Shown in pieces: positions 1 through 36,800 of a stretch of 64,000 nucleotides of DNA. The position numbers and the translations under genes are program-made. The notes under the pieces are model-generated. The model ran no database searches and was not told the DNA's origin. It saw only the letters and a list, made by a program, of their open reading frames with translations. Positions within the stretch are counted from its first letter, which is position 1; every line of letters starts with the position of its first letter. The DNA is from Amphiscolops sp. MND2022 (Eukaryota). Location of the stretch: contig OZ076409.1 of the NCBI GenBank assembly GCA_964187785.1, positions 36,396,001-36,460,000 on the forward strand. Direction: 5' to 3'.

Positions 1-651
1 ATATAAACTTTTAACAAGCCGTGAATGGCCCAAGTCGGTGCCCTGCTCGAGGTTGAAAAAGTGCAATGCTTTTTAAGTATGGAAAGGGTTATTATTGTGA
101 AAATTTTAACAATTTTTCCGAACGCAAAAATAGGACACCCAAAAGGGTACCCATCGGGAGACTCATAAAACTCGAAATCCGCTTTTTCCATATAATGAAA
201 ATTTTTTATTCGGATAGGTTTCTTACTGTCGAAATCTCAAAATTAGACCCTTAAAGTTCGCAAAACGTTCTTTTCAATAGTGAGGGAGTACCTTTTTACC
301 AAAAGAAAATTGTTTCTAAAGAAGGTCGCACGGTTGTCAAAAAAAAACGGTTCCGATCAGAAAATTCTCATCAGTCCCACGGGAGCAAAAAATAATCAAA
401 GAGGTGACTCATAAGAAAAACAGAGTGCCGAAAAAAAGCTACAAAGGAGGAAAAGCGCCAACAGGCTAAAGACGGCTCAAGCCGGCAACCTACTTGAGGC
501 TCACAAAACGCAAATGCTTTCAGATTGGTTCCATATCCGTATTTTAGACCAATCAAATTAGTCGCGTAGTGTCGAAGAAATCAAAACGGGATCCTTTGGG
601 CTCTCTTCAGTTCCACGTGGTTCCAGAAAAAAAAGTTCGCGAGAAAATTAC

Positions 652-2552
652 TGTCGCAGGCTGCCGCCTGTGATGGAAATAATTACACTACATCGGCAGG
701 GGAACAAAACTCGACACCAAGAACACTACCAATATACTGAATACAGGCTATGAACTTTAGAAACTTGTCCTTATTCAACGTTAGTTGTTATTTTACGTAT
801 TCATGCAATAGTTTTGTATTTAGATGAAGTTAATATTAGTCCGTTAAAATTGTACAATTTGGAAATATCCAAATTAGGCTACTTTGTAACAGTGTGCAGT
901 TGAAATGTAAATCGTTGAATCAAAAGCAGTACTAATAGAAGCAACTGTAAAGCGGTATAGGAAACGAGTTCAAGTGACGTTCAGCGATAATCCAAAAACG
1001 TCACTTGAGCTCACCTTTCTAACCAATCACAGCGCTTCAATTCACGAGTGCAATATGACTTTGATTTGGTAGTGGCCGAATATGGCCAATTGACTTAATG
1101 TCCACGGATTGTTTTATGCTTTGGTCAAATGGCCGATTTAGGCCGTCTTAACGTAACGAATGATGCTGAATTATTTGTACTCATAATTAACCATATTAGT
1201 TGGGGACTATTCTAGAAGTGCTTTAATATTAAAATAATACCAACGTACCCTTCAACAAGCCAAATGAACCGAGTGCTGATCAAAGGCCGGATAAGGCCTT
1301 TTACCCTTACTCCCCTCAGTATTGTGCTATTAATCAGGATTTGGCCAATTTCGGCCCTTTTAGGAAAAACCCTGTTTTAGTGATGCAATGATATTTAAAT
1401 AGATTGGGCATGTATTATTTGAACTTGCTTCCCCTACGTTGACTTATAGCCACGTGGTAGCACGTGCTAACACTGCATACCAGTGCTACGAGTCTCGCAT
1501 TCCATCAACAAGCTTAACATTTGTTGACATTGCAATAATAATATGTAGCATAGATATGTTGTTTGAAGTACCGTTAAGTGTATTTACCATTATGTCAATT
1601 GTTTGATGTTACATTTCGGGAGACAAATATGTCAGGAATTCTTCCAATCAGGATTTCACAGAAATATGTGATTGATGCTTTCCGATGATATAGAAAATAT
1701 GTAAACAGAGGTTCTTATGGTGCAGATACCTTTCAAAACCATACCTCTTAAATACCAGAGATATGTAAAAATCAAGTGCATTACATACCTTACAATGTCA
1801 ATCTTGGATGAAAATATGTAAAATATGTGAGTGTTACCCACTCAGGGGTATAAATAGTGTTTAGCCTGAGTAGGACACAAAAATCATATTAAACTACTCT
1901 AGAAAAGATTGATCTCCAAACGGCTTCGCTGTTAGTTCCGTATTGATTAATTTATTATTGATTCGGAACTGTTTCAATGCCCACCACTAGAAAGCAAGAA
2001 AGTCAAGAGGACTTAAGATGTTATCTGATATTGAAAATCTGGATATCATGTTAGTTGAGAACCGTTTTGGTACCAGAGAAAGAGAAGGCAGCTTGAATAG
2101 TAATCTACCTAGAAGATCTAGAAGATTTGCAAGTAATGAGTCTGAAAATGAAGACGGAAACATAGGTAGATCCCAGAGAAATATTGACTCTAGGATGAAT
2201 GCCGAATGTGACCGCAATTCTGTCACAGGTAATTCTAGCGCTGAAATAAACAGGTTGTCCAGCGAATTAAATTCTCGTATTTCGCGTGAAATGGACGAGA
2301 TGATGAATTCTGTGAGTGTCCAAATACAAAGAGCCATAAGCGATGCGATAAGAACTCAAGTGCTTCCTCAAATCCAAAATGTCATTATGGCCGGATCAGG
2401 ACATGGGACCAGAAAAGGATGGGACGTTCCGTCTGAGAGACCGCAACCAAATTCTGAAGTTCAGCGAAATCTTAACGCAAAGAGTAGCTTAAGAAATGAA
2501 CAGGATGAGAATCAATTCAACAATGATTACCCTGTCCTAAATGTTCATGACA
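652..2552 (+). repeat. 5' LTR (1901 bp)
   Basis: Near-identical to 14981-16885 (about 30 differences counted by eye). Starts TGTCGC, ends CATGACA. TATA-like GGGGTATAAATA near 1845-1856; paired CACGTG boxes at 1452-1466. Confidence 0.95.
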
Positions 2553-3679
2553 TGGTGACAGGAGACAACGAATCTCCAAATCAGGTTCCTGAGTTTCTCA
2601 CAGGACGTATTCCATCAAGAAGTCATCTCAACCAGTCCTTCGAGGACGTCAACCTTGACACGACGATCCCAGCGCACGAGAGAATTGCTACAACTGCAGA
2701 TCCTGACCCCATTACAAGACTGGCCGACGTCTTGACCACAATGCAAAGTAGACCAACAGCCCAACAACGCACATTACGCCCAGTCAACTCCAACACAATG
2801 ACTTTCGATGGCAAAAGTGAGAAATTCGAGCTGTTTGAAGATCTTTTCCATACCATGATCAAGATGCAGCCAGAAATGACCGAGCAAAAGAAAACTAACC
2901 ATTTTCATTCACTATTGCGGAAGAATGCTCTCCAGACATTCCGAATTATCAATTCGACAAACCGTCAAACTCTTGAAGACGTACTAGTCATTTTCCGACG
3001 GAAATACGTCAAACATGAGTCTCAGGCGACTGCCAAACATAAATGGCACCGTCTGGTCTTTGATCCCAATACGATGAAATTGCCTGACTTCCTTGAAGAG
3101 TTAAATCAAGGGGCAGAAAAGGCATTCGGAGACCATGCGCAGAAGTTGATTGACAGTTTGCTATACGCAAAACTGCCACCAAAACTAAAAAGGTCAGTCA
3201 ATATGGCCAGGCTAGAAAATGGCTCGTATGATGAGATAGTTGCTCATTTGGAGAGAGAGCTGGAGCTTAACGCCCTTGAGGAGTCAGACGATATACCGAT
3301 GGCAACAATGACCTCCTCAACCACTAAGCCCAAAACGTCTCTGTCCACTGGACAAATGTCAGACATCACTTGCAATTACTGCAAGGAAAAGGGCCACATG
3401 GTCAAGGACTGTGAAAAGCTTAAAAAGAAGAAAGAGAAAGACGCCCAACAAGGCAAGCCAACTCAGAAGAAAACATACCCGGAGTATGGCACCTGTGGCA
3501 AAAAGAATCACCCGGAGGAAAGATCTTGGCAAGGCGCCGGTGCACATCTTAAACCCAAACGCACTAGGCCCGAGGACTCATCTGACAAAAAGCCCAACCC
3601 AAAGGCTCAGAAACCTCAGAACAAGCAAACATCATCAAGCTCTCAATCCTCATCTTCTAACGACCAGTCAAAAAACTAA
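2018..3679 (+). CDS. gag: Gag (553 aa), begins inside the 5' LTR
   Basis: Retrotransposon capsid-like segment (TFDGKSEKFELFEDLF), CCHC knuckle CNYCKEKGHMVKDC, and a second decayed knuckle (YGTCGKKNHPEERS). Ends A-AAA-AAC-TAA. Confidence 0.9.
   Translation: MLSDIENLDIMLVENRFGTREREGSLNSNLPRRSRRFASNESENEDGNIGRSQRNIDSRMNAECDRNSVTGNSSAEINRLSSELNSRISREMDEMMNSVSVQIQRAISDAIRTQVLPQIQNVIMAGSGHGTRKGWDVPSERPQPNSEVQRNLNAKSSLRNEQDENQFNNDYPVLNVHDMVTGDNESPNQVPEFLTGRIPSRSHLNQSFEDVNLDTTIPAHERIATTADPDPITRLADVLTTMQSRPTAQQRTLRPVNSNTMTFDGKSEKFELFEDLFHTMIKMQPEMTEQKKTNHFHSLLRKNALQTFRIINSTNRQTLEDVLVIFRRKYVKHESQATAKHKWHRLVFDPNTMKLPDFLEELNQGAEKAFGDHAQKLIDSLLYAKLPPKLKRSVNMARLENGSYDEIVAHLERELELNALEESDDIPMATMTSSTTKPKTSLSTGQMSDITCNYCKEKGHMVKDCEKLKKKKEKDAQQGKPTQKKTYPEYGTCGKKNHPEERSWQGAGAHLKPKRTRPEDSSDKKPNPKAQKPQNKQTSSSSQSSSSNDQSKN
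2553..2564 (+). promoter_or_regulatory. Primer-binding site (tRNA-Leu-like)
   Basis: TGGTGACAGGAG directly after the LTR end; 11/12 match to the complement of a typical tRNA-Leu 3' end (TGGTGTCAGGAG). Lies inside the gag reading frame. Confidence 0.65.
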
Positions 3680-6600
3680 CTTCGCCACGACTCCAGTACA
3701 ACGAACTAATATCTGTCCGACAATACATCAGATCGGACCCTCCAACGCAAACCTTTCATCAATACAATCAGCAATTGATGGGCTATCCTCTATTGTCTGG
3801 CAGCAGCAGATGGAAAAAGCCACCATCATCACCTACAATAACACCCATTTGTTCCAGAAACCAATTCCTGCTTGGGACCCTGACTATACAACCACCTTCA
3901 ATACCCGGTTCAGGCCCATTCCCCTGATCGATGACTACAATCTAACATACATCGATCCAGACTATGGCAGAGATCCCTATTGGGACACCGAGCTATACAA
4001 CCAAGATCAACTGCAATTTCAATATGTCCTAGACGATATTGACCACTATAACAGAACAGTCCACGAGAACCCTCCAATTACCCATAACAAGAAAACACGA
4101 GCACTAATCGAAATCTGGCAAATGAATGATGGTACAAACCATCCAGTGTTCCCAAACCCATTGGGGACCGAGAACCCTGAAAACAGTGGTGAATCCACGC
4201 CACAATCATTATTAGATGAAAAACAATTCCAAAATGTACTCATCGCCAGAGATGGTGAACCAGACTGTATACCCCTGTCAACCAACATCAACCTCAAATG
4301 CAAGAAACGCATGCTTTATTTCCCAATGGATTTTGGGGAACTGACCATTGATGGATTAATAGACACTGGGGCACTGTCCAGTGCAATACCTGAAATGGAC
4401 ATCCGGAAAATCCGCCTCCTATCTCCACAATCTGTTATCCGAGAAGGTCCGCCTCCGAACTTCCAAATCATGGTCGCTAATGGGCAACTGGAAACTCCTA
4501 AGAGTACCATAGAGCTCAAATTCGAAGTTGGTGACACTGAGTTCCATGAAATCTTTATAGTAATGGAACATTTGACAGGACCAATCATTGGACTAATGTT
4601 CCTTCAGAGAAATCATACAGTCTTGGACATGAGACAAGGAATCCTGAATTTCCCGTTCTTTTCAATGCAGCTTAAAACAGCTGATCACAAATATTCCACC
4701 GTTCTAGAACCAATTCTCAACCCCTCTGAGATAACCATTCCGCCCAACGATAGAGTCCTAATTAGGACCAACTCCTTACTGTACCCTGAGAATGCGGTTA
4801 CTGGAATTTTTCAACCGAGCGACCTTCTACATGAAGAAGGCGACATCACATTTTGCCCAGCATTGGTCACTCTGAATGATGGCAATACAATGATACCAGT
4901 GAACAACTTCACAGACCATCCTTACAAACTCAAAAAGGGACTTCATATTGCCAATTTCTCAGTCATGACGCCAGAACAGATGAAATATGTCAAACCGGTA
5001 GATCCGGCATCCACCTGGCATGTTTTACAAAATGACCAAGAGCAGGCAGCCCACTATGTCAGCAGTCTCATCAAGACAAACAGAAACCCTCAAAATTCTG
5101 AAAATTACTGGTTCCCAACTCCAAAAAATCCTGGAAACCCCGAGGAACACACTCCAATACAGAAACGAATTCTACGAGAATTACAGGCCTTACAGGACCT
5201 GGAGACGCTCGACCCCACAAAAGATGAAGAATCGCGTGCAAAATTCCTAGAAAACTTTGATTGGAAAGACTCCACACTTACTCCTGAAGAGAAGGAGAAA
5301 GTCGAGGAACTACTTGTGGAATTCCATGATATATATGCACGACACAGATTTGACATAGGCATGAATGAGGAATTCAAGGTGAAATTGACACCTAAGGACG
5401 ATTCCCCAGCCTATAGCCAAAGCCTACCAGCCCCCATCAACCTGAAGGAGGACATCCTAGTCGAATTGGCCATGTTACACAAATATGGCATAATCACTAC
5501 CCTACCATTCTCGAAATATGCGAGTCCAATATTCGCACAAAAGAAACCGAATGGAAAACTCAGACTCTTGGTTGACTTGAGAAAAATCAACAACCTCATG
5601 TCCGATGATTATATAAACAATAATCACCCTGTCAGTACCTTGGTTGATGCCGCCCAACACTTGGCGGGCAAGAAACTGTTCTGTAAATTAGACTGTTCGC
5701 AGGCATACCACTGCCTGCCGATGGCTGACCAACGATCGATCGAAATGTTGGCTTTCAACTTTGCCAGTCGCACGTTTGCATACAGACGTTTGGCACAAGG
5801 TCTCAGCCGGGCACTGTCCGCATTCTCAAATTTCATGAGGGAATACCTCGACAAAGTCATTAAAGCGGATCAGTGTGCCCAATATGTCGACGATATCGGC
5901 ATCGCGGCCAATGATGCTGATCACCTCATAGCAAACCTGAGAGCTACGTTCAAATGCATTCAGGAAGCAGGCCTTAAGTTAACAATGCACAAATGTCACT
6001 TCGGTGCAAAAGAAATTGATTTTCTCGGACGGACTATTACCCCACAAGGCGTCAAGCCCCGGAAACAAAATGTACAAAACTTTCTGGAGAAAACCAAATT
6101 CCCGAAGTCGAAAAAGGCTTTACAGCGTTATTTGGGATTCTTGAACTACTACAGAAATTATGTCCCAAATCTTTCAGAACGCCTTGCTCCATTCTACAAG
6201 ATGCTGAAAAGTGACGGAAAGGTCCTGGTATCGAAAGAATTGGTCCAACAATTCGAGGAAATTAACAAAGCACTTGACAAATGTTGCGATTTGGCCCTAC
6301 AACAGCCCATTCCAAACAAGCAAATTGCACTAATGACTGACGCAAGCTTTGGAGCAGCCGGATATGCAGTCCTAATTGAAGACGACCCAAATCAGAAATT
6401 CACGTCACTCAGAAGGTCCTATGCACCTGTAGCATACGGATCCAATCTTCACCCCAGCACAGATCAAGATGTCAATTTATGCCCAGGAAATCCTTGCAAT
6501 TTATTTTGCATTCAAAGAATTTGGCCATATCGTCTGGGGTGCGCCCAAACCAGTCATTATCCTAACCGACAACAAAGCTGTAACACGATTTTTCCAAACA

Positions 6601-8879
6601 AAAATAATACCCCCAGCACTCTAGAATGCGTGTGATTTTGTGATCCAATTCAATTTTGTCATAGCGCATATCCTGGGGGCACAAAATACAGCTGCCGACT
6701 ATTTGTCCCGATTGGAAGCAGATCCGAAGGACAAATTAGTGATGAAAATTCGCGAAGATGTACAAACACTACCGATCGAAATCAATGTCCAATCTGCAAG
6801 GGTGTCACAAGAAGAACAAATCTTCTACACCACGACGACGATGAGACAGAAGAACAGTATTGGGCAAGAAAGGAAGCAATCAGGAAAAATCCAGCAACTG
6901 ATGAGCCCACTGTTACCATACAAACTCTGTCAACAAATCTGGTCAAGCAACACCCCGATATACAAGTCCGATTGAGGAAGACGAATCAGATCATTATCGA
7001 ACAATCCAAAGATGCGGTACTACAGCAATTGAAGGCAAAACTGCTTCATGAAGAGTATTCAGAAAATCTGCTGCAACAGGATGCCCGATACAGGCATTAT
7101 GCAAACAATCTGGAACGAATTGTACTGAAGGACGAAATCCTGACAAGGCAATATTTTGATGAAACAGGGAACGTTAAATAACATCAATTTCTGCTCCCAC
7201 AGCACTTACTCCAGGAAATGCTTCAGTCTCTTCAAGGGACGGCCAATAAACATCCTGGCATCTCAAAAATGCTGCAGGAAATCCGACAATGGTATTACTA
7301 CCCTAGCATGGCCAAACACGTCAAAAAATGGGTAGAGGGGTGTGAGGAATGCGCAAGAGACAAGCGAGCCCCCAACGCAACAATTACGCCTGAATTACTC
7401 AACTTGTCCGAATGGGACCTCGGACCTGAGGACGCCATGCAGATCGACCTATTGCCGAATCTTCCCCCAAGTGGTGGGTATGAAAACGTTTTAACAGCAA
7501 TCGATGTATTCTCCAGATATCTGTTCGCCTATCCCCTTACGGACGCATCAGCGATCAATGTAGCAAAAGCAATCTTTGACATCATGACCAAGCATGCATA
7601 TCTACCAACGACTCTCATTACTGACAAAGGTACTGCATTTACTTCTGCAATTATTGCGGAGATTACGCAAATTTTGGGCATAACACTCAAATGTGCAACA
7701 ACAAAACACCCGCAGACGATTGGGAAATTGGAACGAACTCATGCCTCAATGAAAACAAACCTCAAAATGGCATGTGGGGAATATCGCCGACAATGGCACA
7801 AATACTTGCCATTAGCAGTACTGAACCATAATACTAGTTATCACGCCAGCATCGGTTGTGAGCCGACGAGAGTATTCCATGGAAGAATTCCATTTAATAT
7901 CCTGGATCACAAGCTTGGAAACAATCCAAACGAGCAAATCAATCCCACAACCGAATTTGCTGAAGAAATCCAAAATTGGACAAAAATCTTGATTGTCAAA
8001 ACAAAGCAAAACATTATGCAGTCATATATCAAGTACGAAGAATATTATGACCGCAAGGCAAAAGCCGCTCCACTAAAAGAGAATGATTACTGCTTTGTAT
8101 TACAGCCGAAAGCGGATCACCAAGGATCAAAAATTCCATTCCGTGATTATAGGTGGGTCGGACCATTTATAGTCCAAAAAGTTTTACCTAACGAGAATTA
8201 TATTGTACGGCGAATGAATACAAACAAGACTCAAATTTTGCATCGGATTCGCCTTAAAAGGTTTGTCCCCAATCAACCGCTTGAGGACAATTTCCGAGAA
8301 CAGCGGTTACAACCTGACGAGGAAAATATTATTCCACAAGATGATATATACGTCATAACGTGGGAAACCGACTTTGGAGAGCAGCTAGTCACGAGAGGCA
8401 ACGAACCTACTACGACTAGCTTGCCGAACGGCGAACAGCCGAATGCGGCAGAACCGAGGCACAGTGACGTAGACGAGAACGAAAAAGATTACATCATCAC
8501 GAACGACGAAACAAACTACGCTGGAAATACGGCGTACGGCCGGAATGAAAGGTTAAATGATGACGTCACAAAAAGGAATGACGCTAGTGAAGCGACTAGC
8601 AATGAAGAACCTGATTGGCCGAATCCGGCCGTTTACCCAGGAAATCCAGAAAAATCCCCGCCGAATGCGGACAAAAGACTGAAAAATGATAAAAAGTTGC
8701 CTGAAAGAAACTTGACGAATGAAAACGATGCACGAAATTCTCCAAAAAAGGGGGATGATATTATCGTGCCCGAAATATCTGAAAACGATGCTAGAAATGA
8801 AAGTCTGAGCCCTAGAGGAGGGAAATATAATCTCAGACCTAATCCTAACCCAAACTACTCAGAAGACTTCAGATACTAG
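3670..8879 (+). pseudogene. pol: Gypsy pol (protease, RT, RNase H, integrase), disrupted
   Basis: LIDTGA protease (~4362), YVDD RT (5883), LMTDAS RNase H, H..CEEC zinc motif and QID/TDKG/LERTH integrase core. Lesions: frameshift ~6443, TAG 6622, frameshift ~6830, TAA 7179. Confidence 0.95.
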
Positions 8880-9117
8880 GAAAGACTGAATTCAGTTCAG
8901 GAGATGAGTCCTGAATTGGATTTTCCTTTTTTTATCTTTTCTTTCTAGTCCCATGAAGGTCAGTAGTTTTTGAATAAATAATGGGACTTAAAGGCGATCC
9001 CTTACAAAGAAGACAAATATGGGATCAGGGAATCAGAGAAACAAATGAGAACAAATAAAACAACAAAAGAAATGAACAAAAATTACAGTTTGAAAGTACA
9101 TAAATACATATGTACAT

Positions 9118-12100
9118 TTAATCTTTAGAAGTGCCAACAGGAGATTCTTCTACCACAGAGGAAGCCCTAGACCTCGAACTACTCTTTCCCATTCGTCTCC
9201 GTTTACGGTCACTAGGAGGCACGACTGCGGGCATTTCCCCGACACTGTAGGACCCTGTATCATCAAGGCTCCCAGTCCCTTCGCCCACCGCGGAGAAGGC
9301 AGAACGGTATAAAGCAACCAGGGTCTTGTAGATCTTGTTCCTAGCAAATTCGTCGACAAAGGTCCAAGGATCATATGAAGCAGATGAGGCAGACTGACTG
9401 AAAGAAGTAGAAAGGAGAGAGAAATTGGCCAAACTGGAATCGCTAGTACAGAAGGCAATGGAATCTGGAACCCCAGACAGATAACTCTGAGCAGGCAAAA
9501 CCACGTCCACGAGCTGGCTTTGGCAATTTGAAGTACTAATAGATCCAATACTCACAGTAGGGTAATGAGGGCTCTCGGAGGTGATGCACAAACAACTCAG
9601 TTTGAAAAAGTACATTAGATGGCTATGCTCTTGCATGAAGTCAAGGTTAACAAGGAAGTCGATGAGGTCTGGGGACCCTTGACTGACATCCAATGAAGGC
9701 AAAGAAGAAGCTTTAAGTTGGTCCAATAGCTCCACATACTCGTCTCGGCAGGCCGATTCATTCGCAGAACTGACCCAAGACCTTAACTGAAAGGTCCGGT
9801 ATAACAGGTCGAAGTGACGAAGAGCCACCTCGGTGGGCCTTTTCACCATTACGCATGGATCGAAAGCGGCAAGACCCCTGATAAGATTGGAACACAGGCC
9901 AGCTTGGCGAAGGATACCCCCAATCAGGAATTGAAGATAATTCTGGCAATCTTGAACAAAGTCATTCTTGACGGACACAGCAGTCTTCTGGATAGTGCTT
10001 TTGTCAGCCTTCTTCTCAGTAAGCACGCCCTCGGATCTCTGTTTACTGGCCTTGGTGACCTTGTTTTTCATATTCAGTCTTGTGAGGAATTCGTCAACTG
10101 GTAAAATTGTCCCTTCGCTGGTTTGGAAATTCAAAAGTAGAAACCATGAATTTTCAAGTGGGATGGTGTCCGAAGTGTAACAACGAAAGCAGAGTTTGTA
10201 GATATAGCGGGCGACCTCCCCGCAAAGATAGAAGGATGAATCTCTCCTCTTCTGCAAATTAGTGGTGAAGCTAGAGTTGTCTAAACATAGGACACTAACG
10301 CATATCAGTTCAAAAGGAATAACCCTGGCTTATCCTAATATACTAACAATCACTGATGAGGTGATAGAAGAATTCGAGCTTCACGGGGAAGAATTCATCA
10401 CAGATGAGCAAACCACTCAAAACTCTGAACCTGGAACAAATAGGAGTATTGACGGACCTATGATATTCTCCCCTTTGACAAAAGGAACTGGACCAAGATG
10501 GGATTACTTACTCTTGTCCTGACTCCCTGGCCCTGCTGTTTGGCAGAGTGCAAAGTGAGGAAGGAAACCACAAACTTCCACTCGTCCATAAGTTCCTGGC
10601 ACAAGACAGGCAGTGTGGAGAGCTCCAGATCACTCTTAGAAATCGCCTAAAAGAAACACGAAACGATCAAACGACAAGGCTTGAAAACTCTGACTGATAT
10701 AAACTTGTTCTGACGCCAAGACAATAGAAATCACTTACTTTAGCTAGAACGGGGCTGCGCTGTACCCAGTCCTCATTTGCTGATCCGCCCAAGGAAATGA
10801 CCAGGACACGGAGTACCGAAAAGAAGTCTATGTGCCCAAAAACACTGTAGCTGCTTTTGTGCATTAGTTTCGACAAATTGAGCCGAGAGAACCTGAAGCA
10901 ACTCTGGACAGCTCGCACGGAAGTAGGGACCTCGTCAATGGTCCGGATTAGCTCAGACGGGCATCCGGAACAAGCCACTATATCTGCTTTTGTAGATATG
11001 GACAATAACAGGCGTGCCAAGGAGCCTAGTTCTCCAGTGAGGTTAGTCGTGGGTAGACCACTACGGCAAACGATGACTTTGCATAGGTACTGGCCTTTCC
11101 AGAACCTCGCCGACATGAAACGGTTGGGTCCCTGGTCCTCGAATTCCAAAGCAAAGCACTGCAGGGTAGAGATCTGATCAGCAATGTCGCTCATGGCACA
11201 GTTGAAGAGATGTTGGAATATGACCTAGAAAAAAAACCAAGAGTACAACCACTTAGGGAAGGGAGATAAACTCGAGGAAGAGGAAAGCAAAAGATACTTA
11301 CAGTCATTCTATCTTCTCCCCAGTCAAAGTCACAGAGAGAAGCTTGGTGGTCAGTGAATGAGCTGATTTTGGCCCACATGCTTCGGAGGATTGCAATGTC
11401 TCCATGGCTCTGGATGAAATCTGCCACCATGCTTAGCTGGGTTCGCGCGCGAGACTCGGGGGATATTAAAGGGGTAGTCCTGCCCCGCACGAAATCCTCG
11501 TAAAAGGGGAAACGTTCCCCAATATCAACCAACTCCACGTTCATAAATTTGGGGAGTTCCTTAGCTAGCTCCATCTTGCTCAAAATCTTTCCGTTCCTGC
11601 CTCGGACGCGGTGTTGGGTTTTGAGTGTGACGGAATCGGTACTTTTCAAATGTTCGTACCGCCATCTCTGGTCTCGTCTAAGATGCCTTTCAGTCCGATG
11701 GTGCCTGAGAATTTCCATTGTCCCTTCACTCCGAATGGAAAAGTTTTTCTTGCAGATATGACACCAGACCATATATGGGTTGTGGATTGGATCTGCCGGA
11801 CCTGAAATGAAAGACCGAGTCCACCCTATTTTAGCGAAGAACTCCTCTCGCATTGGGACCCCGCGTTGAGACTGTCTCTTAGCCTTTGGTGTCTTCTTGG
11901 GCTGAGTTTTACTTTTGGCCTTTAGTGTCTGTTCCTTCACCTCGGACAAGGTAATATCCTGGCTGCTCCGATCAGTTTCTTGGCTGCCCTGTTGCAAGAC
12001 GTCAGGCTGTGCCGTGGTCGAAATGATCTGGATTGGGGCCTTGAAGGTGGCAGAAATTAGGGCCATTTCACCAGCGCTATCACTCTTTCCAAACGAGGAG

Positions 12101-13008
12101 GAATCGCCTAAGCCTCCATAGTCAGTGATGGCCTGGTCTTCTGAGTCGATGAAGGGCGAGTCGCCTGTTTCAGCGTCACTTGAGTCACTGTCTACACACC
12201 TAAAGGGAGTCTGCGCTCGTGACTTAAAATGACTGGTTCGCGAAGGAGCAATTGTTGGCCTACCTCGAACAGCGTCCAAAATCATCCGTTCCATTGTGCT
12301 ATGGGACATTCGGAGTGTTTCATCGGTCAAGACACGCAATAGATGGTACACTTGGGACTCCGTGAAGGTGACTGCTGTTTGTCCTGGTGGGATCCGGAAG
12401 GCGTTTGTCTCATCGAAATAAGTTTTCAAAATAGCCCGTGCTCGACCAGAAAGTTCAGAAGGCTGTGAATCAGTACCCCGAGAAGTGGATGCAACCTTTC
12501 CAGGCTGTTGTTGCTGGCTGAGGATGGTTATGTCAGGATGGTCACTAGTTTCAGCCCCGGATTCGGATATCCCGGGGATACCTCCGTATAGGGAAGGGCA
12601 ACCGCCACTGCTTGTCTCCTCGGTTGTCTTCTCTCCCTCACTGAAATCAGCCAGGAATCGCACCTTGGGCTCATGCGTGGGCAACATGGGAGCCTCATAT
12701 ACGGAAGACTCGCAATCTTCATCATCAACCAACTCTCCAATCTTTGAAGCGGCAGCCTCAACTTGTACAGCAGGAAGAAGCTCAGATAGCTGGGATTCGG
12801 GATTATTGACAACCATTAACCCTGATTCCAAAGCATTTAGGCTAGTTTGTGACGCACCTGCTGCATCAATCAGTATTGGGGTGCTGGACCGGACTGGGAC
12901 TAGAGACAGGGGAGTTTGGTCTCCAGTGGGAGTTTCAGTACTGGTCGTGGTCATGGTATGATCCACAGAAGTTGGCTGTTCTTGTGACTGAGGTCTTTCA
13001 GCCTCCAT
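9118..13008 (-). CDS. Antisense five-exon cargo gene, ~1,190 aa BED-finger / hAT-transposase-like protein (one 1-nt lesion)
   Basis: Exons 13008-11302, 11224-10739, 10646-10512, 10430-10348, 10280-9118. Introns of 77, 92, 81 and 67 nt with GTAAGT (x3) or GTTAGT donors and pyrimidine-rich YAG acceptors. Splicing joins three computed ORFs in frame, except one extra base near exon 4. Zinc finger WCHIC...RHHRTERH. Confidence 0.8.
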
Positions 13009-14310
13009 TTCGCGTACTTGGCCTCTGCATATATGTTCACATCCTCACTTTCAACGCTTGGAGGGGAAGTCTCAGATCTGATGACACTTGTTGTATTTGG
13101 AACAACACCTCCTTCAGGAACTGTCTGGAGTAATCCGGAGGGGTTTGATGTAGTCCCAACTTCCAAAGTCTGATTATCAAAATAGAAAGAGATAAAATTG
13201 AGCGGTATGCTTCCTTAGAAAGAATCCATTTTACCGCGTTAAAAATCTTCCGGAAGTGATTCGAAAATTGAATGAAGCGTGTTTTCACGTGTTTAATTGT
13301 TGGAAACAGGAAGCGTTATGTGAACGATGTTTGGCCCTGATCAAGCTAAACTTGTTCAAAAGAAAAATGAGGAAGTCAGACCAACCTGGATTACAAGACA
13401 TGTTTTGTGGTGATGTCCGTACGGCAACAGTCCAACGTGGGATGATAGAAGCGTAAGAAGTTGGTCAAACTCGGCTTGAAGATGGAGACCTGGGATACTC
13501 CGACGAAGTGGGAGAACAAGGATGAGAAAGGAGCCGGATAGGGACGAGTAGTAGTCAATTAGATGTGAAGGATGAAACAAATAAACAACGAATTGGAATG
13601 GAATTGAAATAGGGTAAAGCAATTGGAAAATTGGAGTTCGTGGCAGAAGAAATTACCAGACTAATATTATTTGATTATTTACATATTTAAAATTGTGCAT
13701 GGAATCTGCCAGTGAAATGTACAACGACCTCTTCATTATTTACAGTTTACTTACTCAGTGGCCATTTACTGCCGGTTACCCTGTTTTGTTTCACCGTTTT
13801 GTTCAGTTGCCGTGGTTACCTTCAATAGGAATTTTCGCCATTTTGGAATTATTTAGATTTTTATTTGTCGCCATTTTATTATTCTTTTTTCAAATTATCG
13901 AAGCTTGGCTCTGATTGGTTGAAGCCATTACGAGAAATTTTGGTGACGCGTGCCGTTAATTGCTTACAAGCGACCCGTTAATTACCCACTTGAGACTGGT
14001 GTAGTTGATATTAATAATTCAAGCGTCATTCACACCTCTCATAGTGACGATGCTGATGAGGGGTAAACACTGAAATATCAAAGGGTGCCGACTAGTCATG
14101 AAATTCCATTCAGGAAAGTTTACGACGGATCAGGACGACCAACCGAAGTTTTAACCGTCACATTGGAAACTTCGGGGAAACACCTTACTCGGCTAAATTC
14201 TTGGATCTGATAAATTCATTCTACCCTAAACTTCATCACGATCCAGTTGCATCTACAAGCTTCAAAATAGCGAAAAAAGCCATCATGAGGGAATACAATC
14301 TCGCAAGAAG

Positions 14311-15069
14311 TTGTTTGACTTAGAAGAATTCGACTCGGATGGCTCTGAGAAATCTGTAATCTACATATCAAGCAGCGAGAGCGAAGCGTCGGACTGGGAG
14401 ACGGATTGTTCCACCGACACGGAGCAGCTGATAGCGCGGATAGAGAGAGAAGTAACATCTAGCCCTATGCTCATTGGGGGCAGGGTAATGACATCGGAGA
14501 AACCAGAAGAAGATGTGTCAGTGGCTGGACCAAGTACTTCTGGTGCAAATGCTGAAAAGTCGCCAAAAATGGACCATAAGTACTTTGACCTAGAAAGGTG
14601 CTATGCTCCCCCTAAGAGGATGGAAAAGTCACGCATCGAACTATGCAATACAATCTTGCCAGCCCTAGAGTCCCCGATGTCGCCACCAGACTATGAAAGG
14701 GGACCGAGTCAAGATACCCCTCTAGTCCAGCCATCAATGAACGGGTTCTATGCGTCCTACCACATCCAAAACACCAGGCCCTATGACAATCTGAGCAGTC
14801 AGAGATACACTGGGTGCATGGTGTGTGGGAAAACAGTGGACTTGATTAAAGACGAGAAGATCAATTGGTATATGGAGAGATCAACGCCGCGCGGAGAACC
14901 CGAATTTGTCATCAAACTGAGACGAGAAGCCTACATAAACGGACTGAATGCAGGTAGTCTACTTTTCATTGCTCCCGCAGTGTCGCAGGCTGCCGCCTGT
15001 GACGGAAATAATTACACTACATCGGCAGGGGAACAAAACTCGACACCAAGAACACTACTAATGTACTGA
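14311..15069 (+). CDS. Orphan cargo ORF (252 aa) ending inside the 3' LTR
   Basis: Long open frame with an acidic/Ser-rich N-terminus and a CMVC motif. The last 89 nt are LTR sequence. Start uncertain (TTG; out-of-frame ATG at 14285). Confidence 0.6.
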   Translation: MFDLEEFDSDGSEKSVIYISSSESEASDWETDCSTDTEQLIARIEREVTSSPMLIGGRVMTSEKPEEDVSVAGPSTSGANAEKSPKMDHKYFDLERCYAPPKRMEKSRIELCNTILPALESPMSPPDYERGPSQDTPLVQPSMNGFYASYHIQNTRPYDNLSSQRYTGCMVCGKTVDLIKDEKINWYMERSTPRGEPEFVIKLRREAYINGLNAGSLLFIAPAVSQAAACDGNNYTTSAGEQNSTPRTLLMY

Positions 15070-16885
15070 ATACAGGCTATGAACTTTAGAAACTTGTCCT
15101 TATTCAACGTTAGTTGTTATTTTACGTATTCATGTAATAGTTTTGTATTTAGATGAAGTTAAAATTAGTCCGTTAAAATTGTACAATTTGGAAATATCCA
15201 AATTAGGCTACTTTGTAACAGTGTGCAGTTGAAATGTAAATCGTTGAATCAAAAGCAGTACTAATAGAAGCAACTGTAAAGCGGTATAGGAAACGAGTTC
15301 AAGTGACGTTCAGCGATAATCCAAAAACGTCACTTGAGCTCACCTTTCTAACCAATCACAGCGCTTCAATTCACGAGTGCAATATGACTTTGATTTGGTA
15401 GTGGCCGAATATGGCCAATTGACTTAATGTCCACGGATTGTTTTATGCTTTGGTCAAATGGCCGATTTAGGCAGTCTTAACGTAACGAATGATGCTGAAT
15501 TATTTGTACTCATAATTAACCATATTAGTTGGGGACTATTCTAGAAGTGCTTTAATATTAAAATAATACCAACGTACCCTTCAACAAACCAAATGAACCG
15601 AGCGCTGATCAAAGGCCGGATAAGGCCTTTTACCCTTACTCCCCTCAGTATTGTGCTATTAATCAGGATTTGGCCAATTTCGGCCCTTTTAGGAAAAACC
15701 CTGTTTTAGTGATGCAATGATGTTTAAATAGATTGGGCATGTATTATTTGAATTTGCTTCCCCCTACGTTGACCTATAGCCACGTGGTAGCACGTGCTAA
15801 CACTGCATACCAGTGCTACGAGTCTCGCATTCCATCAACAAGCTTAACATTTGTTGACATTGCAATAATAATATGTAGCATAGATATGTTGTTTGAAGTA
15901 CCGTTAAGTGTATTTACCATTATGTCAATTGTTTGATGTTACATTTCGGGAGACAAATATGTCAGGAATTCTCCCAATCAGGATTTCACAGAAATATGTG
16001 ATTGATGCTTTCCGTTGATATAGAAAATATGTAAACAGAGGTTCTTATGGTGCAGATACCTTTCAAAACCATACCTGTTGAATACCAGAGATATGTAAAA
16101 ATCAAGTGCATTACATAGCTTACAATGTCAATCTTGGATGAAAATATGTAAAATATGTGAGTGTCACCCACTCAGGGGTATAAATACCGGTGTTTAGCCT
16201 GAGTAGGACACAAAAATCATATTAAACTACTCTAGAAAAGATTGATCTCCAAACGGCTTCGCTGTTATTTCCGTATTGATTAATTTATTATTGATTCGGA
16301 ACTGTTTCAATGCCCACCACTAGAAAGCAAGAAAGTCAAGAGGACTTAAAATGTTATCTGATATTGAAAATCTGGATATCATGTTAGGTGAGAACCATTT
16401 TGGTACCAGAGAAAGAGAAGGCAGCTTGAATAGTAATCCACCTTGAAGATCTAGAAGATTTGCAAGTAATGAGTCTGAAAATGAAGACGGAAACATAGGT
16501 AGATCCCAGAGAAATATTGACTCTAGGATGAATGCCGAATGTGACCGCAATTCTGTCACAGGTAATTCTAGCGCTGAAATAAACAGGTTGTCCAGCGATT
16601 TAAATTCTCGTATTTCGCGTGAAATGGACGAGATGATGAATTCTGTGAGTGTCCAAATACAAAGAGCCATAAGCGATGCGATAAGTACTCAAGTGCTTCC
16701 TCAAATCCAAAATGTCATTAAGGCCGGATCAGGACATGGGACCAGAAAAGGATGGGACGTTCCGTCTGAGAGACCGGAACCAAATTCTGAAGTTCAGCGA
16801 AATCTTAACGCAAAGAGTAGCTTAAGAAATGAACAGGATGAGAATCAATTGAACAATGATTACCCTGACCTAAATGTTCATGACA
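14981..16885 (+). repeat. 3' LTR (1905 bp), contains a dead copy of the gag 5' end
   Basis: Matches 652-2552. The gag-like frame from 16351 is interrupted by TGA at 16444. Followed by the ATTAC TSD. Confidence 0.95.
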
Positions 16886-18797
16886 ATTACTAAACTTTTA
16901 TCTCGTAGTTTTAAAGAAGTTCAAAAATACTTAGGACCCTTAGAATGTGGGTTAGACTTCTTACTTGACGTAAGGCTTTGTACTAAGAAGCTGAACAAAA
17001 AGTAACTAGTCTTTTTAGAAGTTTGCTTTTTTCAGTAAGGGCCGACTAAACCCACGTGGAGGAAAATGACCTCCTGCATAGTGCCGAATTTTATCGCATT
17101 TCAGAAGAAAACACACCTTCTAAAACATTTCCTCTTCAACAACTGCATAATGAAATTTTCAGTTGGGTTGCACTTTTTTCAAACATCTCCTCAGCCACAA
17201 TAAAGAGCTTCAGAGGACTCCTAGCTGCCATACGAATCACATTAAAATAGAAATTTGATTATTATGTTGAATCAACATGTGGAAACTAAAAATTCAGAAT
17301 AAATTTTTTCAGGCTCTTTGATTTCTTGGATGTAATCAACAAAAAGGACGTTCTGCAGTCAAATGGCCACGATAATTTAGTTTACTCTCAGTGAGTAACT
17401 GGTCAAATCCTGTTTACCGAGATTTAGCCGGAGAAAAATGGGTCAGGTAATTGCTGTTAAATTTGTTTAAAATGTATCGGATACTTGGTATTTACTAATA
17501 ATTGTTTAAACCCGATTTTTTCCAGAACCTTATAACTTCGTGAAAGTGACTCGCCAAACAAGCAATTAAACGAGTAAGTCAAGAAACAAATCTAGATAAT
17601 AAGTCTCTCCTCTGCAGAAGAGTCGTTTCCTTTTTGGGAATTGCTCCTCCTTTCAATCAATTTTAAAAACGGGGCGGAAATTCTGCCATTCATACAGGAA
17701 GTTCGATTTTTTTGCGAAATAGCAGCATGTCTGCGAAGTTGATTATACAGGGATGATCAACTCCGCTGGAAAGTGTTGGGCGAGAGAAGAAAGAGCAGAG
17801 CTAAGACCATGTGCTACTAGGCAGAGTGTTATTCTGCACAGTCGGGGTTACTTTCAGAGATTATAAGGAGTTAGAACAGAGTAAAATAAAAAAAAGAGGT
17901 GAAGCCATTAATTCTTGGAGACAACATAAAATTTGGGTGCATCGCCCGGAAATTGTCGACATTTGCCTTCTTTTGCTCTCTCTTTATTAGCGGGGAATCA
18001 ATTTACAATCACCCGCACATGGCTCTGAATTTTGCAAGGGTTTTTTGATCTAGTACTCTTTTAATCGCATTAAATCGAAATTATTGCAGTTTTCTCCCGG
18101 ATCTCGTTTCCCCTCTTTTCCCGGCTGTGAGCGGAAACGAACGAAATGCTGTTTAACTTTCACACATCACTGCCCAAAATGTAACGCGATCGGTAACTTT
18201 TATTGTATTTGTCAGACAGTCATCAAACAGTGGAAACCAGTTAACGTCTCCAGAGATTCGTGGGCGTGGTTGAAGACATCTTCAACGGACGGGTACAGAC
18301 CTGAATTGGGTAGATTATCCTGACCATCTAGCTCCTTATCTTTACAGCACATACGTCCGAGGATAGCCACCATTACGCTTCCTTATCTCAAATTTCACCC
18401 ATTGGGAGTCTTATACGCAGGTTAATTATACCTCGCAGAAACTGGCTAAAGGAGATACGCCTAAAATAGTACAATTCCTTGTACTAGTCAAAATCCACAT
18501 CGTTTTAAAATTCCAGCAAACATCTCTACTTGACTAAAATTTTTTGGACACTGATAATATTCGGCTGAAGAAATGTCGGATTGGTTGATCGACTGACCGA
18601 AAAGATACTGGATTAGCCGAGGTGCACATTGCAGATTACATTGCAGATTTAATTTGCACACACAACAATAGACCAAAGCAATTTGACTCTAATTATATGA
18701 CCGTCGTAAATCAATGACAAAAGACAGAGACTGAGTTTACTAGCACGAAAACAGCAGCAGACTATTGGAGCAAAAGAGAATATCTTGAGGGGCGAGG

Positions 18798-30822: not shown

Positions 30823-33800
30823 GAAAACGTGATACTAAGTAGACTCTTTGTACAAATGCGGTTTCTTGTAAAAACAGGTGAATCAAAGCGACCCCAAAAC
30901 AGTCAAAATTTTCCAATTTTGGACAGTTCCGGTGATTTTCATTTCAAATTAGGAAACTTCGGCGAGTTAAAAGCTTGAGAAAAACAAAACGATATGTCTA
31001 GTTCGCATCACGCTTTTTAAAGAGAATCTTCATGATAGAAAAACTAAAAATTACCACAGAAAGTTCAGATGGATCCAGCTTACTTTTTGAAAGCTCAACA
31101 GCGACTGAGCTCGGTATCCAGTAGTAGTTTTTGTAGGTTGAATCACAATTTCCTTATAGAATTTTCCTCAAAAACACCGCAAAGTCAAAAAAGGTCGAAA
31201 AACTGTTTTTTGACAAAATAGCCACTTTGCCTTCACTTCACAATATTGTTTTGTAGATTAGAACTTCCATTGACGTGAACACTGAAACAATAGGCTATTC
31301 AAACCGCCCTTTGGGAAAAAATGGAGGTTTATATTTCGAAACTTCTCATTCATCGACCACAATTTTCCATTTCTGTACTATTCCTGAAATTTTCTCGAAA
31401 GAAAGTACATAGAATCAGAATTGAACCTTGAAGCTACCAGTGCTGGTCTGTAAAGGCATTTGCACACTGCAAATGAATTTCAGAAACACTTAGAAAAAAA
31501 ACTTCCTCAAAAACATAGGTTTTTTGGCGTGTTTCCTAAATTTTTTGTTTTCATCAAGAACCAAACGAAATAGCTACCAACGCAGTACGCAAAAAGAATG
31601 GAAGTTTTCCAGGTAGCAACAATACTTGTTGTTACTTGTGGCCTGCATTATTGGAGCCTAACGAAAGTTATTTAGGATGAACGAATCTAACAGTTTCGTG
31701 TCTTTGGTCTACCTGCGGGTATAGACCTACTGGTTGGTCTAAAACGATAAGGCAATCAATTTTACGCGAATGATTTTTAAAACTAGGAACAAAATTGGGT
31801 ATTCATCTTCTGGAATCAGTCTGCCGGAGATCGGCTAACTGGTCAACCATCTCTGGTGAACCTTTGATTTGACAAACGCACAATTCTGCCTCTCTACTTA
31901 CATCAACTTGTATCAACGTACTTTTCAACATCAACGTCCATTATTTCAAAATGACTGTCTTTCATTTTCAAAACAAATTTCTTTGCGCAAAGATTGACAA
32001 CGGGAGCCAAGCATAGAAAAACATACCAACCTAGCTCCTTTGGAACACCTTGAACATCCGCACCACAGTAAACAATGCATATGGTGATATCAGATGGCAT
32101 AAGATCGAATATGGCTATATACCGCGTGATTATTCGAGCTACTTCTTCTGTTCCGCAAAATCCAAAAAAATTAACTATGCCAAGTGAGACTGTCTGTTTA
32201 GAAACATACATATAGATTCCCGGGAAAATTATTTCCGTCGGAACTGGTGCTTTCGTCAGATGAGATTTTCAGTAAATCAGATCTCTTTCGGTTTGCGTCG
32301 ATATGCTTAATCAATGTGACCATCTTTTGATTTTCAGTTCCAATTTTTTATTCTACTGTGTTGGCGGTAACCTTGTCTTATTTTAACGTCTCATACATAC
32401 TCTGCAGCCTTTCCGATTTTACAATTTGATTTACAGTGAGTCTTTCGTTGAAAACTAACTTAGCCTTTTAAAGTAAACCCTGATCAGACTTTGCAATTTT
32501 CCTTAAAATTATTTCGCATTGATTTTCAGCTCGAAATTCCTGTTTCCCACACATCAACCTGCTGAACACTGGCGATATTCCGTTTTTCTTCCATATATAA
32601 ACGTAATCAGATACCCTCTCTCGCTAGCCTTCTTAGTAACCCGATACTCTATATGATCTTCGCTAATTGTGACAAGCTCAGTGCTGGAACTTTCATTTTC
32701 ATCAGTCATTCTGAATTTTTATATGTGGCAGCTACTCTGAAAATATAATTCTGGTGTTGTGTGAACTGTCACAAGTGGTGGGGCAAAACCGTTTAACGGT
32801 GAAATGAAGTTAATAAAAATCGCACTACCAACTTTCAGTGGTAATTACAGTAAGCGGATTCCATTTTTTGACTTATTTCACAATACCGTTGACCAAAATC
32901 AATCCCTCAGCAGTATTCAAAAACTACATTACCTCAAAACATCATTGAAAAGTGAACCTGCTCGTCTACTCTCGCAATTACCAGCAATGAGTGCTAATTA
33001 TGCAGTTGCCATCCAGTTGTTAAAAGAGAGATATAATAAACGAATGATAACACATACTCACCGGGATGCTCTTCAAACTCAAACCACTGAGCCGTGAATC
33101 ATCTGATCAAGAACGCAAGTTTGTTAGCGTATGAGTAGATAACACAATGGCACTCGAAGCAAAGGGTATGGACAATCAAGCGTCAGATTTCATGAAGGTA
33201 TTCTTCATCGCAATGAAATTAGATAGCGAGACAAGACGGCAATGGTAATTGCATACCACTGGCGATGGTGTTCAGACAATGGCATCCATGCGACAGTTCT
33301 TAGAGGAACCTACCCGAGCAGTAGACTTTTCTGCAATGTCTAGAAACAGCAGCGGAAGGAAACGTCAAGTGACAAAGAAGCTCGACTCTGTCATACAGGA
33401 GCAGAGTCGACTACGAAGTGTCCGAACCGCAGCTCATGCAATGTATCGTATCACTGTGACCAATTCAAGGCTCTCAGTTTTGATGAAAAAGTTGAATGTG
33501 TCAAGACCAACCACAGTAAACAATGCATATGTTGATATCAGATGGCATAAGATCGAATATGGCTTTATAACGCGTGATTAATCGAGCTATTTCTTCTGTT
33601 CCGCAAAATCCAAAAAAAATTAACTCTGCCAAGTGAGACTGTCTGTTTAGAAACATACAAATAGATTCCCAAAAAATTGTTTCCGTCGGAACTGGTGTTT
33701 TCATCAGATCAGATTTTCAGTAAATCAGATCTCTTTCGGTTTGCGTCGATATGCTTAATCTTGTGACCATCTCTTGATTTTCAGTTTCAATTTTTTAATC

Positions 33801-36800
33801 TACTGTGTTGGCGGTAACCTTTGCATATTTTAACGTCTCATACATACCCTGCAGCCTTTCCGATTTTACAATTTGATTTACAGTGAGTCCTTCCTTGAAA
33901 ACTAACTTAGCCCTTTAAAGTAAACCCTGATCAGACTTTGCAACTTTCCTAAAAGTTATTTCGCATTGATTTTCAGCTCAAAATACTTGTTTCCCACTTA
34001 TCGACTTGCTGTACACTGGCGATATTCCGTTTTTCTTCCATTGACAAACGTAATCAGATACCCTCTCTCGCTAGCCTTCTTAGTAACCCGATACTCTATA
34101 TGATCTTCACTAATTGTGCGAGCTTAGTGCTGGAACTTTCATTTTCATCAGCCATTATGAATTTTTATACGTGGCAGCAATTCTGAAAATATAATTCTGG
34201 TGTTGTGTGAACGTGTCACATGTGGTGGGGCAAAAACGTAAAGATGTAGATATAAAAATTTTTGAAAAAAATCTCGATTCTCAACTAGAATTGCTCCGAA
34301 TCTCGACTAATTCTCGGAAACTCTGATGACCGGATCATACTAGCACAACCCAAAATGCCAAATGCCCATCAGAAAGTCTACCAATCTTGTCAAAGACATG
34401 CCTGTTTTCACAACTTTGTAAGACGAGAGAAGAAAGTTTGAATGATATTCCAGACACCTACGATCAGATGTTGAGATGTGATTGCCTTTGCAACACTGAA
34501 CCTAAATTCAGTAGACATGGGAAGGTGTGCAAACCCAATCCAGTTCAACCCGGTTCAAGAACTTTGCAGCAAAAAGATTGGCCCTTCCTTTAGGGCAGAG
34601 GTCGGCTCGTCTCCTATTAAATCTATCATCGTATGCTATAATCTTATGTTTATGTTAATTTGCATGATCAGTGCCCTCAATGTTATGGACTTCAATTGAA
34701 TCTTTGATGCAATGATTTCCTCTTGTCTAGAGATACGACACTCAGCTGCTCCAATCAAAAAATGGTGAGATTTCTTAAATTCTGTTCAAATGAACATCAT
34801 GCAATTAATCTAAAGTTAACCAAAAGTTTATTTCGTCATTCATTCATTTATTCACTCATGATTCGTTATCTGTACACATTTGTTAGCTCTTTCATAGTTT
34901 TTGTGAATTTTTCTATGTTCATTCTTGTGCGGCAAAACGAGTTTGTTCATACAATTGAATTCAAAACTCTAATCAAAGCTCTCCCAACATTACAAAGCAA
35001 TACCTACAATATTTTTTGGTGCCTCGACCCGGGACTCATTTACAAGCAGAAATGACGGAATCCCTCCGACAATCACGATCAGGTCACATCAGTCCAATCA
35101 CCTGTACAGAGAATTCAATGATAGACATTTAATTGAAGTCTCCAAGTCACATTACAACAGTGGAAAAAGCAAGGTTGGAGTTTCCTTTCGACAAGTGTAA
35201 CAACCATCAAGTAAAAACTGAGGGTTTCAACGAACAAATAACCGAGTCATTCAATCAGAAGGGAGATGGTCACGGCATAGATGAAGAAATTTCTCAAGCA
35301 GAACTGCGAATCCATGATACAGACCTCAAGGTCTGTAGTCTTATCAAAGTCATTCGAGACGGTCTCGACAAAATCAGAGAAGCCTCTGAGAGACTCAGAA
35401 GATAGATGTAACAAATGCTCCGTTTCAAGAGCGCACTAGTAGTGAAATGAAGTTAATAAAAATCGCACTACCAACTTTCAGTGGTAATTACAGTAAGCGG
35501 ATTCCATTTTTTGACTTATTTCACAATACCGTTGACCAAAATCAATCCCTCAGCAGTATTCAAAAACTACATTACCTCAAAACATCATTGAAAAGTGAAC
35601 CTGCTCGTCTACTCTCGCAATTACCAGCAATGAGTGCTAATTATGCAGTTGCCATCCAGTTGTTAAAAGAGAGATATAATAAACGAATGATAACACATAC
35701 TCACCGGGATGCTCTTCAAACTCAAACCACTGAGCCGTGAATCATCTGATCAAGAACGCAAGTTTGTTAGCGTATGAGTAGATAACACAATGGCACTCGA
35801 AGCAAAGGGTATGGACAATCAAGCGTCAAATTCCATGAAGGTATACTTCATCGCAATGAAATTAGATAGCGAGACAAGACGGAAATGGTAATTGCATACC
35901 ACTGGCGATGGTGTTCAGACAATGGCATCCATGCGACAGTTCTTAGAGGAACCTACCCGAGCAGTAGTTTTTTCTGCAATGTCTGGAAACAGCAGTGGAA
36001 GGAAACGTCAAGTGACAAAGAAGCTCGACTCTGTCATACAGGAGCAGAGTCGACTACGAAGTGTCCGAACCGCAGCTCATGCAATGTATCGTATCACTGT
36101 GACCAATTCAAGGCTCTCAGTTTTGATGAAAAAGTTGAATGTGTCAAGACCAACCACAGTAAACAATGCATATGTTGATATCAGATGGCATAAGATCGAA
36201 TATGGCTTTATAACGCGTGATTAATCGAGCTATTTCTTCTGTTCCGCAAAATCCAAAAAAATTAACTCTGCCAAGTGAGACTGTCTGTTTAGAAACATAC
36301 AAATAGATTCCCAAAAAATTGTTTCCGTCGGAACTGGTGTTTTCGTCAGATCAGATTTTCAGTAAATCAGATCTCTTTCGGTTTGCGTCGATATGCTTAA
36401 TCTTGTGACCATCTCTTGATTTTCAGTTTCAATTTTTTAATCTACTGTGTTGGCGGTAACCTTTGCATATTTTAACGTCTCATACATACCCTGCAGCCTT
36501 TCCGATTTTACAATTTGATTTACAGTGAGTCTTTCGTTGAAAACTAACTTAGCCTTTTAAAGTAAACCCTGATCAGACTTTGCAATTTTCCTTAAAATTA
36601 TTTCGCATTGATTTTCAGCTCGAAATTCCTGTTTCCCACACATCAACCTGCTGAACACTGGCGATATTCCGTTTTTCTTCCATATATAAACGTAATCAGA
36701 TACCCTCTCTCGCTAGCCTTCTTAGTAACCCGATACTCTATATGATCTTCGCTAATTGTGACAAGCTCAGTGCTGGAACTTTCATTTTCATCAGTCATTC

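Follow-up and report, generated by a model that had tools for sequence, protein, structure and literature searches.

The gag frame within the LTR

How much of a Gag protein can an LTR (long terminal repeat) encode? The usual view is that LTRs do not code for protein, and gag is truncated by annotation tools where the PBS (primer-binding site) begins. The question is raised by a 16.2-kb element spanning positions 652–16885 of the window (the whole stretch of DNA analysed, 64,000 nucleotides of contig OZ076409.1 from Amphiscolops sp. MND2022), in which a sequence-only reading had placed the end of the 5′ LTR at 2552 and a gag frame open from 2018, 178 codons inside it. Direct terminal repeats with TG..CA ends and a 5-bp target duplication identify the element as an LTR retrotransposon, with 29 substitutions plus two small indels separating its 5′ and 3′ LTRs over about 1,900 nt. 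The layout is as follows.

647..651, + strand: left target-site duplication ATTAC, repeated at 16886–16890
652..2552, + strand: 5′ LTR, 1,901 nt, TG..CA
2018..2551, + strand: 178 gag codons within the 5′ LTR (family residues 18–195)
2018..3679, + strand: gag ORF, 553 aa, with DUF1759 and zf-CCHC matches, both below the Pfam cut-off
2553..2570, + strand: candidate PBS, TGG directly 3′ of the 5′ LTR, read M-V-T-G-D
3486..6635, + strand: pol piece with protease, RT and part of RNase H (Pfam), broken in this copy
7218..8879, + strand: integrase ORF (H2C2, rve, p58_C; Pfam), 3′ of RT/RH
9118..13008, − strand: three antisense ORFs of 317, 175 and 605 aa without a Pfam match
14981..16885, + strand: 3′ LTR, TG..CA
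16351..16885, + strand: 3′ LTR copy of the gag 5′ end, in-frame stop at 16444–16446
16886..16890, + strand: right target-site duplication ATTAC, matching 647–651

The termini, the ATTAC duplication and the ORF confirmed both the LTR end and the 178 codons inside it. The gag ORF (2018–3679) stays open across the LTR/PBS junction, where it is read D-M-V-T-G, so that the PBS is coding sequence, as had been proposed; the ATG at 2552–2554, gag codon 179, combines the final base of the LTR with the first two bases (TG) of the PBS. The PBS was tentatively assigned from the TGG at 2553 and from a junction motif conserved among relatives, and no tRNA gene to pair with it was found within the window. 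None of 20,000 base shuffles of 2018–2551 was free of stops over 177 codons in any forward frame.

The expected second 5′ end of gag was found in the 3′ LTR, with an in-frame stop at its codon 32 (16444–16446). Over the coding stretch the 5′ and 3′ LTRs differ at ten sites, each of them a missense change or a stop. The insertion is thus decaying; its pol is also fragmented, and the window element is a decayed copy. No other copy of the family was found within the window outside the element.

The LTR end in other copies

The LTR end can be checked independently, as the frame of a 3′ or solo LTR is predicted to resemble the family as far as the last LTR codon and to continue into host DNA. Because the LTR ends in A, the residue after the last LTR codon must have an A-first codon in such ORFs. 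Among the 44 listed cluster members, 19 were shorter than 300 aa, one of which (a pol-side fragment) was dropped. In all of the remaining 18 the likeness stops at the last LTR codon, followed by unrelated flank, and all 18 continue with I, K, M, N, R, S or T (A-first codon; background 0.40), compared with 7/17 having an A-first residue at the next position. A short-protein search with the distant family P0155 (34% identical to P0040) gave 7,568 matches, 120 of them listed, which were sorted initially into 82 flank-type proteins, 32 internal junctions and 6 unclear cases. After a stricter cut, in which 39 of the 120 were dropped (internal junctions, junction repeats and unclear ends), an A-first residue followed residue ~129 in 81/81 proteins (background 0.42) and was present at the next position in 34/81. 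In Gags that are 32–58% identical, 115–195 residues precede the motif [H/D/N/Y]-M-V-T-G, the LTR end being inferred there from the motif only. Judged from the 18/18 and 81/81 flank ends together with this motif, the LTR-coded gag layout is clade-wide and conserved across families to 34% identity. About one third of the gag frame lies in the LTR, family-wide.

The sequence-only reading had also held that every solo LTR carries a promoter plus an ORF able to fuse to host sequence. The frame does open to the flank in the short cluster members and runs through into it, but the 3′ LTR copy in the window stops early, as described above, and the flank tails are short (median 19 residues in 18 cases). 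Host-fusion products are a possibility, with short open tails as the only sign of them.

In-frame repeats (9–17 residues) of the LTR-end/PBS junction were seen in 11 of the 120 listed P0155-family proteins, including P0318, P0342, P0360, P0361, P0383, P0399, P0415 and P0420, several of which then run into host flank. These sequences suggest that LTR ends have shifted downstream through the uptake of PBS-containing units.

The family start of Gag

A search with gag residues 1–185 gave 281 homologues, 120 of which were listed, and the counts given here refer to those listed. The commonest Gag length was 570 aa (34/120). The basic motif encoded at ATG 1977 formed the start in 71 proteins, whereas 23 started at the 2018-equivalent; the junction methionine was residue 196 in 74 and residue 179 in 19, and the exact M-V-T-G was absent from 12. 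In the 80 proteins with an upstream start, the residue matching ATG 2018 was M in 55, I in 19, V in 5 and R in 1. As it is not always methionine, 2018 cannot be the family start.

1977..1979, + strand: ATG equivalent to the family Gag start, out of frame with 2018 here, with a 25-aa frame

With the family start at the 1977-equivalent, the family overlap is 195 codons (585 nt). The deep overlap claimed earlier stood, whereas its size, counted from 2018, had to be revised. ATG 1977 has a pyrimidine at −3, and ATG 2552 has purines at −3 and +4. In the window copy ATG 1977 is out of frame with 2018 in both LTRs. The frameshift between the two positions, being present in both, was thus already there when the copy arose, and such a copy would have been either complemented in trans or begun at 2018.

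Probable coding constraint on the LTR-coded head

We assessed constraint on the protein level, where searches detect only open frames. Among the near-full-length copies, 72 of 77 were kept and 5 were dropped by frame or identity filters. The 72 fall into subfamily A (44 copies) and subfamily B (28 copies), which are 57% identical over the head, and residues 18–195 were gap-free in 71 of them. The A–B identity was 0.89 for residues 1–30, 0.375 for 31–87, 0.80 for 88–141 and 0.46 for 142–192, and reached 0.97 in the capsid-like core. A single pair, P0040 and P0104, showed the same blocks, with 3/30, 38/57, 9/54 and 26/51 differences respectively (chi-square p 2e-9). Changes in the two conserved blocks were conservative (mean BLOSUM62 +0.79 and +0.35, compared with −0.08 and −0.18 expected for single-base changes), and both linkers were without a conservative bias (−0.65 and −0.64). 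The 76 replacements in this pair occurred without a stop (p ~0.026 at a 4.7% nonsense share).

2018..2056, + strand: conserved hydrophobic/acidic block (family residues 18–30)
2228..2389, + strand: conserved block of ~54 residues, likely helical as judged from sequence only (family residues 88–141)

A profile of 100 heads matched the heads of P0124, P0132 and P0126 (E 3.5e-26, 1e-15 and 4e-5 respectively; best reversed decoy 0.023), and the P0155 head scored no better than decoys in this search. Its composition suggests that the head opens with a basic tip and a short hydrophobic block, and that a polar linker separates these from a longer block, behind which lies a second linker. A simple heptad count gave no clean coiled-coil register in residues 88–141. 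The head had no usable match in the ESM Atlas, and the gag profile matched only zinc knuckles among PDB sequences. Scans for related DNA yielded 19 loci in metagenomes, all zinc-knuckle-level matches, nothing in viruses and one match of 28% in genomes.

Taken together, with two conserved blocks and a gap-free alignment in 71/72 copies, the head looks constrained as a protein, and the LTR-internal gag stretch is probably coding. The ten LTR differences of the window copy, all missense or stop, are the pattern of unconstrained decay and count against constraint. A start at 2552 with 2018–2551 unconstrained, the outcome against which the sequence-only reading had set its claim, is not what this protein-level evidence points to.

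Head–body linkage and strand transfer

During reverse transcription, minus strong-stop DNA copies R-U5 and is then transferred, as outlined in an excerpt of PMC7175516. After a jump to another RNA, both LTRs would carry the R-U5 of the first RNA, and U3 and the interior would come from the second. Reassortment of heads and bodies at the PBS is therefore predicted if the head lies in R-U5. In subfamily A, the r2 of site pairs was 0.10–0.16 across the junction compared with 0.24–0.25 inside the head. The correlation of distance matrices was 0.76 between the halves of the head and 0.50 between two body segments, and fell to 0.04–0.07 between the head and residues 196–331. Random 10-site sets from the 44 copies gave 0.56 for head–head, 0.12 for head–body and 0.71 for body–body, and the 33 search representatives alone gave 0.47, 0.14 and 0.59 respectively. 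Sliding linkage in subfamily A was lowest at residues 190–216. Starred sister pairs of the head tree (P0071+P0074 and P0040+P0051) did not stay together in the body tree, which was built by a quick method and is poorly supported.

In subfamily B there was only a weak drop (0.44 compared with 0.60). Head exchange between subfamilies A and B was not found, with one doubtful case in 72, and the A/B signature continued across the junction in all of the 72 copies but this one. The A/B recombinants P0010, P0046, P0063, P0074 and P0115 switch between Gag residues 246 and 498.

Thus within subfamily A head and body are nearly unlinked and the break falls at the junction, a pattern to be expected if the head is R-U5 and is swapped at minus-strand transfer. 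We take these as signs that replication reshuffles the LTR-coded Gag head. The break also lends indirect support to the long coding R/U5 proposed earlier.

Transcription signals and a proposed mechanism

Signals in the LTR that bear on the extent of R-U5 are the following.

1849..1854, + strand: TATAAA, the sole one in the LTR, with the transcription start predicted ~30 nt downstream
1888..1893, + strand: ATTAAA, candidate poly(A) signal that would give a short R and a U5 of ~640 nt
2245..2250, + strand: AATAAA in the coding block, alternative candidate poly(A) signal that would give a long R

A start near 1880, as predicted, would give an R-U5 of ~670 nt and a leader of ~95 nt. Within 1880–2551 there are 21 ATGs upstream of the junction ATG, so that scanning to the latter is unlikely, though its context is better. 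Predicted RNA folds of the 5′ end, the PBS region and the 3′ LTR edge were no stabler than shuffles (z −0.91, −0.74 and −0.40 respectively).

In the mechanism that we propose, the TATA at 1849 would set the RNA start, giving an R-U5 that is mostly coding, and ribosomes would start at the first ATG (the 1977-equivalent). The Gag made in this way would begin with a basic tip and a short hydrophobic block; a flexible linker would lead to the likely helical block of ~54 residues, and a second linker from there to the capsid core. The whole head would be carried on minus strong-stop DNA, so that a jump to the other RNA would unite a head and a body from different genomes, with the joint exactly at the PBS. 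The second gag start would be absent from genomic RNA, or only partly in it, as this RNA would terminate within R of the 3′ LTR. Overall, we hold with good confidence that the gag frame opens deep in the LTR and crosses the PBS, and that its LTR-coded front third is likely to be translated, with the RNA start predicted at ~1880, and likely to be swapped between co-packaged genomes at the first strand transfer.

The left edge of the 3′ LTR

An additional reading frame overlaps the other edge of the LTR.

14281..15069, + strand: extra sense frame, 256–262 aa in the family, reaching 89 nt into the 3′ LTR
652..740, + strand: left edge of the 5′ LTR, where the final ~29 codons of the 3′ extra ORF recur

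This ORF had 203 homologues, 120 of them listed and mostly 256–262 aa long; the LTR-edge motif was kept in 101 of the 120, 84 of which had an identical tail length. The ORF was assigned to no known family and gave only sub-0.9 leads in the ESM Atlas. No polypurine tract was found before the 3′ LTR, the nearest run of at least 11 purines lying at 14442, more than 500 nt upstream, and the bases preceding 14981 are pyrimidine-rich and coding. An excerpt of PMC6317226 describes extra ORFs in plants and gives a polypurine tract for ‘most’ elements. The 3′ LTR edge (14950–14980) resembles a splice acceptor.

Alternative explanations

Could the overlap be an artefact of where the LTR or the protein is taken to begin and end? 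The missing polypurine tract before 14981 might suggest that the LTR boundary is misplaced, or that the repeat is a local duplication or artefact. This is practically negligible given the TG..CA ends, the 5-bp duplication and the TGG directly after the 5′ LTR, and the end point shared by the 18/18 and 81/81 other copies refutes a misplaced boundary. With the boundary in place, the Gag start might nevertheless lie at the junction ATG (2552) or beyond it, in which case the frame before it would be a relic of coding sequence that was absorbed by the LTR and kept by RNA or DNA signals only. That ATG is invariant with its favourable purines at −3 and +4, some database gene calls start there, the capsid-like match begins only at residue ~263, and the junction repeats in 11/120 listed distant-family proteins show that LTR ends are movable. 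However, an ATG arises at this position as a by-product of joining CA to TGG, 21 ATGs lie upstream of it, and the LTR has no second TATAAA. A relic would also hardly be gap-free and conserved at the amino-acid level between subfamilies only 57% identical there, or retain head homology across families that are 37–58% identical. We consider a start at 2552 very improbable, and favour translation of the head from the upstream start.

The reassortment itself could have arisen otherwise, by DNA-level gene conversion between LTRs or as assembly chimeras, and would then be uninformative on reverse transcription and the U5 boundary. LTR copies are present in thousands (7,568 short homologues in one family), conversion tracts cannot extend past the LTR end, and the sequences are assembly products. 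Crossovers within the repeat should fall anywhere, whereas the halves of the head stay linked (0.76) and the linkage minimum sits at the junction; we therefore regard this explanation as rather unlikely, and prefer exchange at the first strand transfer. A spliced form joining the LTR-coded head to the downstream ORF seems improbable, as the 3′ ORF has its own Met-started form of 256–262 aa in most listed homologues, and splicing leaves the open frame through the PBS into the capsid core unexplained. Such a product would in any case be compatible with the mechanism proposed above rather than its exclusive alternative.

Relation to known elements

The pol order PR-RT-RH-IN is that of Ty3/gypsy (Metaviridae), with RT and integrase above the Pfam cut-off and the protease and RNase H matches below it. 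The best solved RT matches were foamy virus RT and then Ty3 (E 5e-24), together with a caulimovirus-type polyprotein. The relatives' Gags gave weak Retrotrans_gag or Ty3_capsid matches, below the cut-off, as were the DUF1759 (residues 263–334) and zf-CCHC (E 0.003) matches of the window gag. DUF1759 is linked to BEL elements. BEL/Pao elements have three Gag zinc knuckles and a BEL-type RT; two zinc knuckles were seen in our Gag alignment. Ty1/copia membership was ruled out, because integrase follows RT/RH. From its sequence the element appears to work like Ty3/gypsy, and we file it as gypsy-like, without a named clade.

The overlap of GAG with the LTR in Ty1 (Ty1/copia, Pseudoviridae) is about 40 nt, compared with 585 nt in the family, about fifteen times larger. 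As here, the Ty1 frame begins within the LTR and takes in the PBS: excerpts place the Ty1 PBS within the GAG ORF (PMC4974528) and the GAG start 53 nt into the RNA, after a 5′ UTR of 53 nt (PMC3592414). The present case is thus a Ty1-like overlap on a larger scale in a gypsy-like element, a PBS within GAG being already known from Ty1. Ty3 shares the PR-RT-RH-IN order, the p58_C-type integrase tail and probably a CCHC Gag, and its PBS adjoins the 5′ UTR and is not in GAG (excerpt of PMC4974528). Unlike Ty3, the element has one third of gag LTR-coded, a second ORF over the other LTR edge and no polypurine tract that we could find. For Cer1 of Caenorhabditis elegans (gypsy), an excerpt of PMC10309623 describes an N-terminal half of CERV common to Gag and a 5′ UTR that runs beyond the LTR; as positions 957 and 1175 are still 5′ UTR, past the 492-bp LTR, gag would start outside the LTR. 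Cer1, set beside the element by description and not by homology, thus differs in that gag is not begun in the LTR.

HIV nef and MMTV sag are retroviral ORFs in U3. Like the 3′ extra ORF here, these and the pol of fish V-clade1 enter an LTR; they are not gag starts in R-U5, whereas the window element overlaps both LTR edges. The overlap of V-clade1 pol is described in an excerpt of PMC11117352. Excerpts of PMC3601003, PMC3286476, PMC2238898, PMC7175516 and PMC13205880, and of PMC6451197 and PMC9911081 on LTR-rich animal genomes, contain no long gag/LTR overlap. No report of an overlap this large was found by phrase match, a search confined to open-access text.

With a third of Gag encoded by the LTR, the evolution of the protein is coupled to the way in which reverse transcription proceeds. 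The frequency of intermolecular first transfer is usually studied only in marked viruses, and head–body linkage is a read-out of it in a natural population. Very many LTR copies also carry, at their downstream end, a frame that is open and has its own start, a testable source of new host exons. On a wider scale, we tentatively propose, at somewhat short of an even chance, that in a large gypsy-like clade U5 encodes the whole N-terminal Gag domain, which travels on minus strong-stop DNA, and that heads and bodies are in this way reshuffled at the PBS by replication itself; that both LTR edges are coding; that plus-strand priming needs no classical polypurine tract; and that thousands of 3′ and solo LTRs are promoter-plus-ORF units open to host DNA.

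Other features of the window

Directly 5′ of the gag stop lies A AAA AAC (3670–3679), which we take to be a candidate −1 frameshift heptamer. The antisense ORFs between integrase and the 3′ LTR are located at 9118–10071, 10667–11194 and 11191–13008 (− strand), and a CxxC...H...H stretch in the 605-aa ORF presumably resembles a BED finger (candidate). Outside the element, a tandem repeat of ~2.64 kb is present in three copies with 91–100% identity at 32062–38392. Two ORF fragments, at 46888–47631 (+ strand) and 42951–44297 (− strand), were judged from their translations to be non-LTR retrotransposon-like. A 642-aa ORF without introns lies at 48156–50084 (+ strand) and, from its motifs, presumably resembles selenoprotein O.
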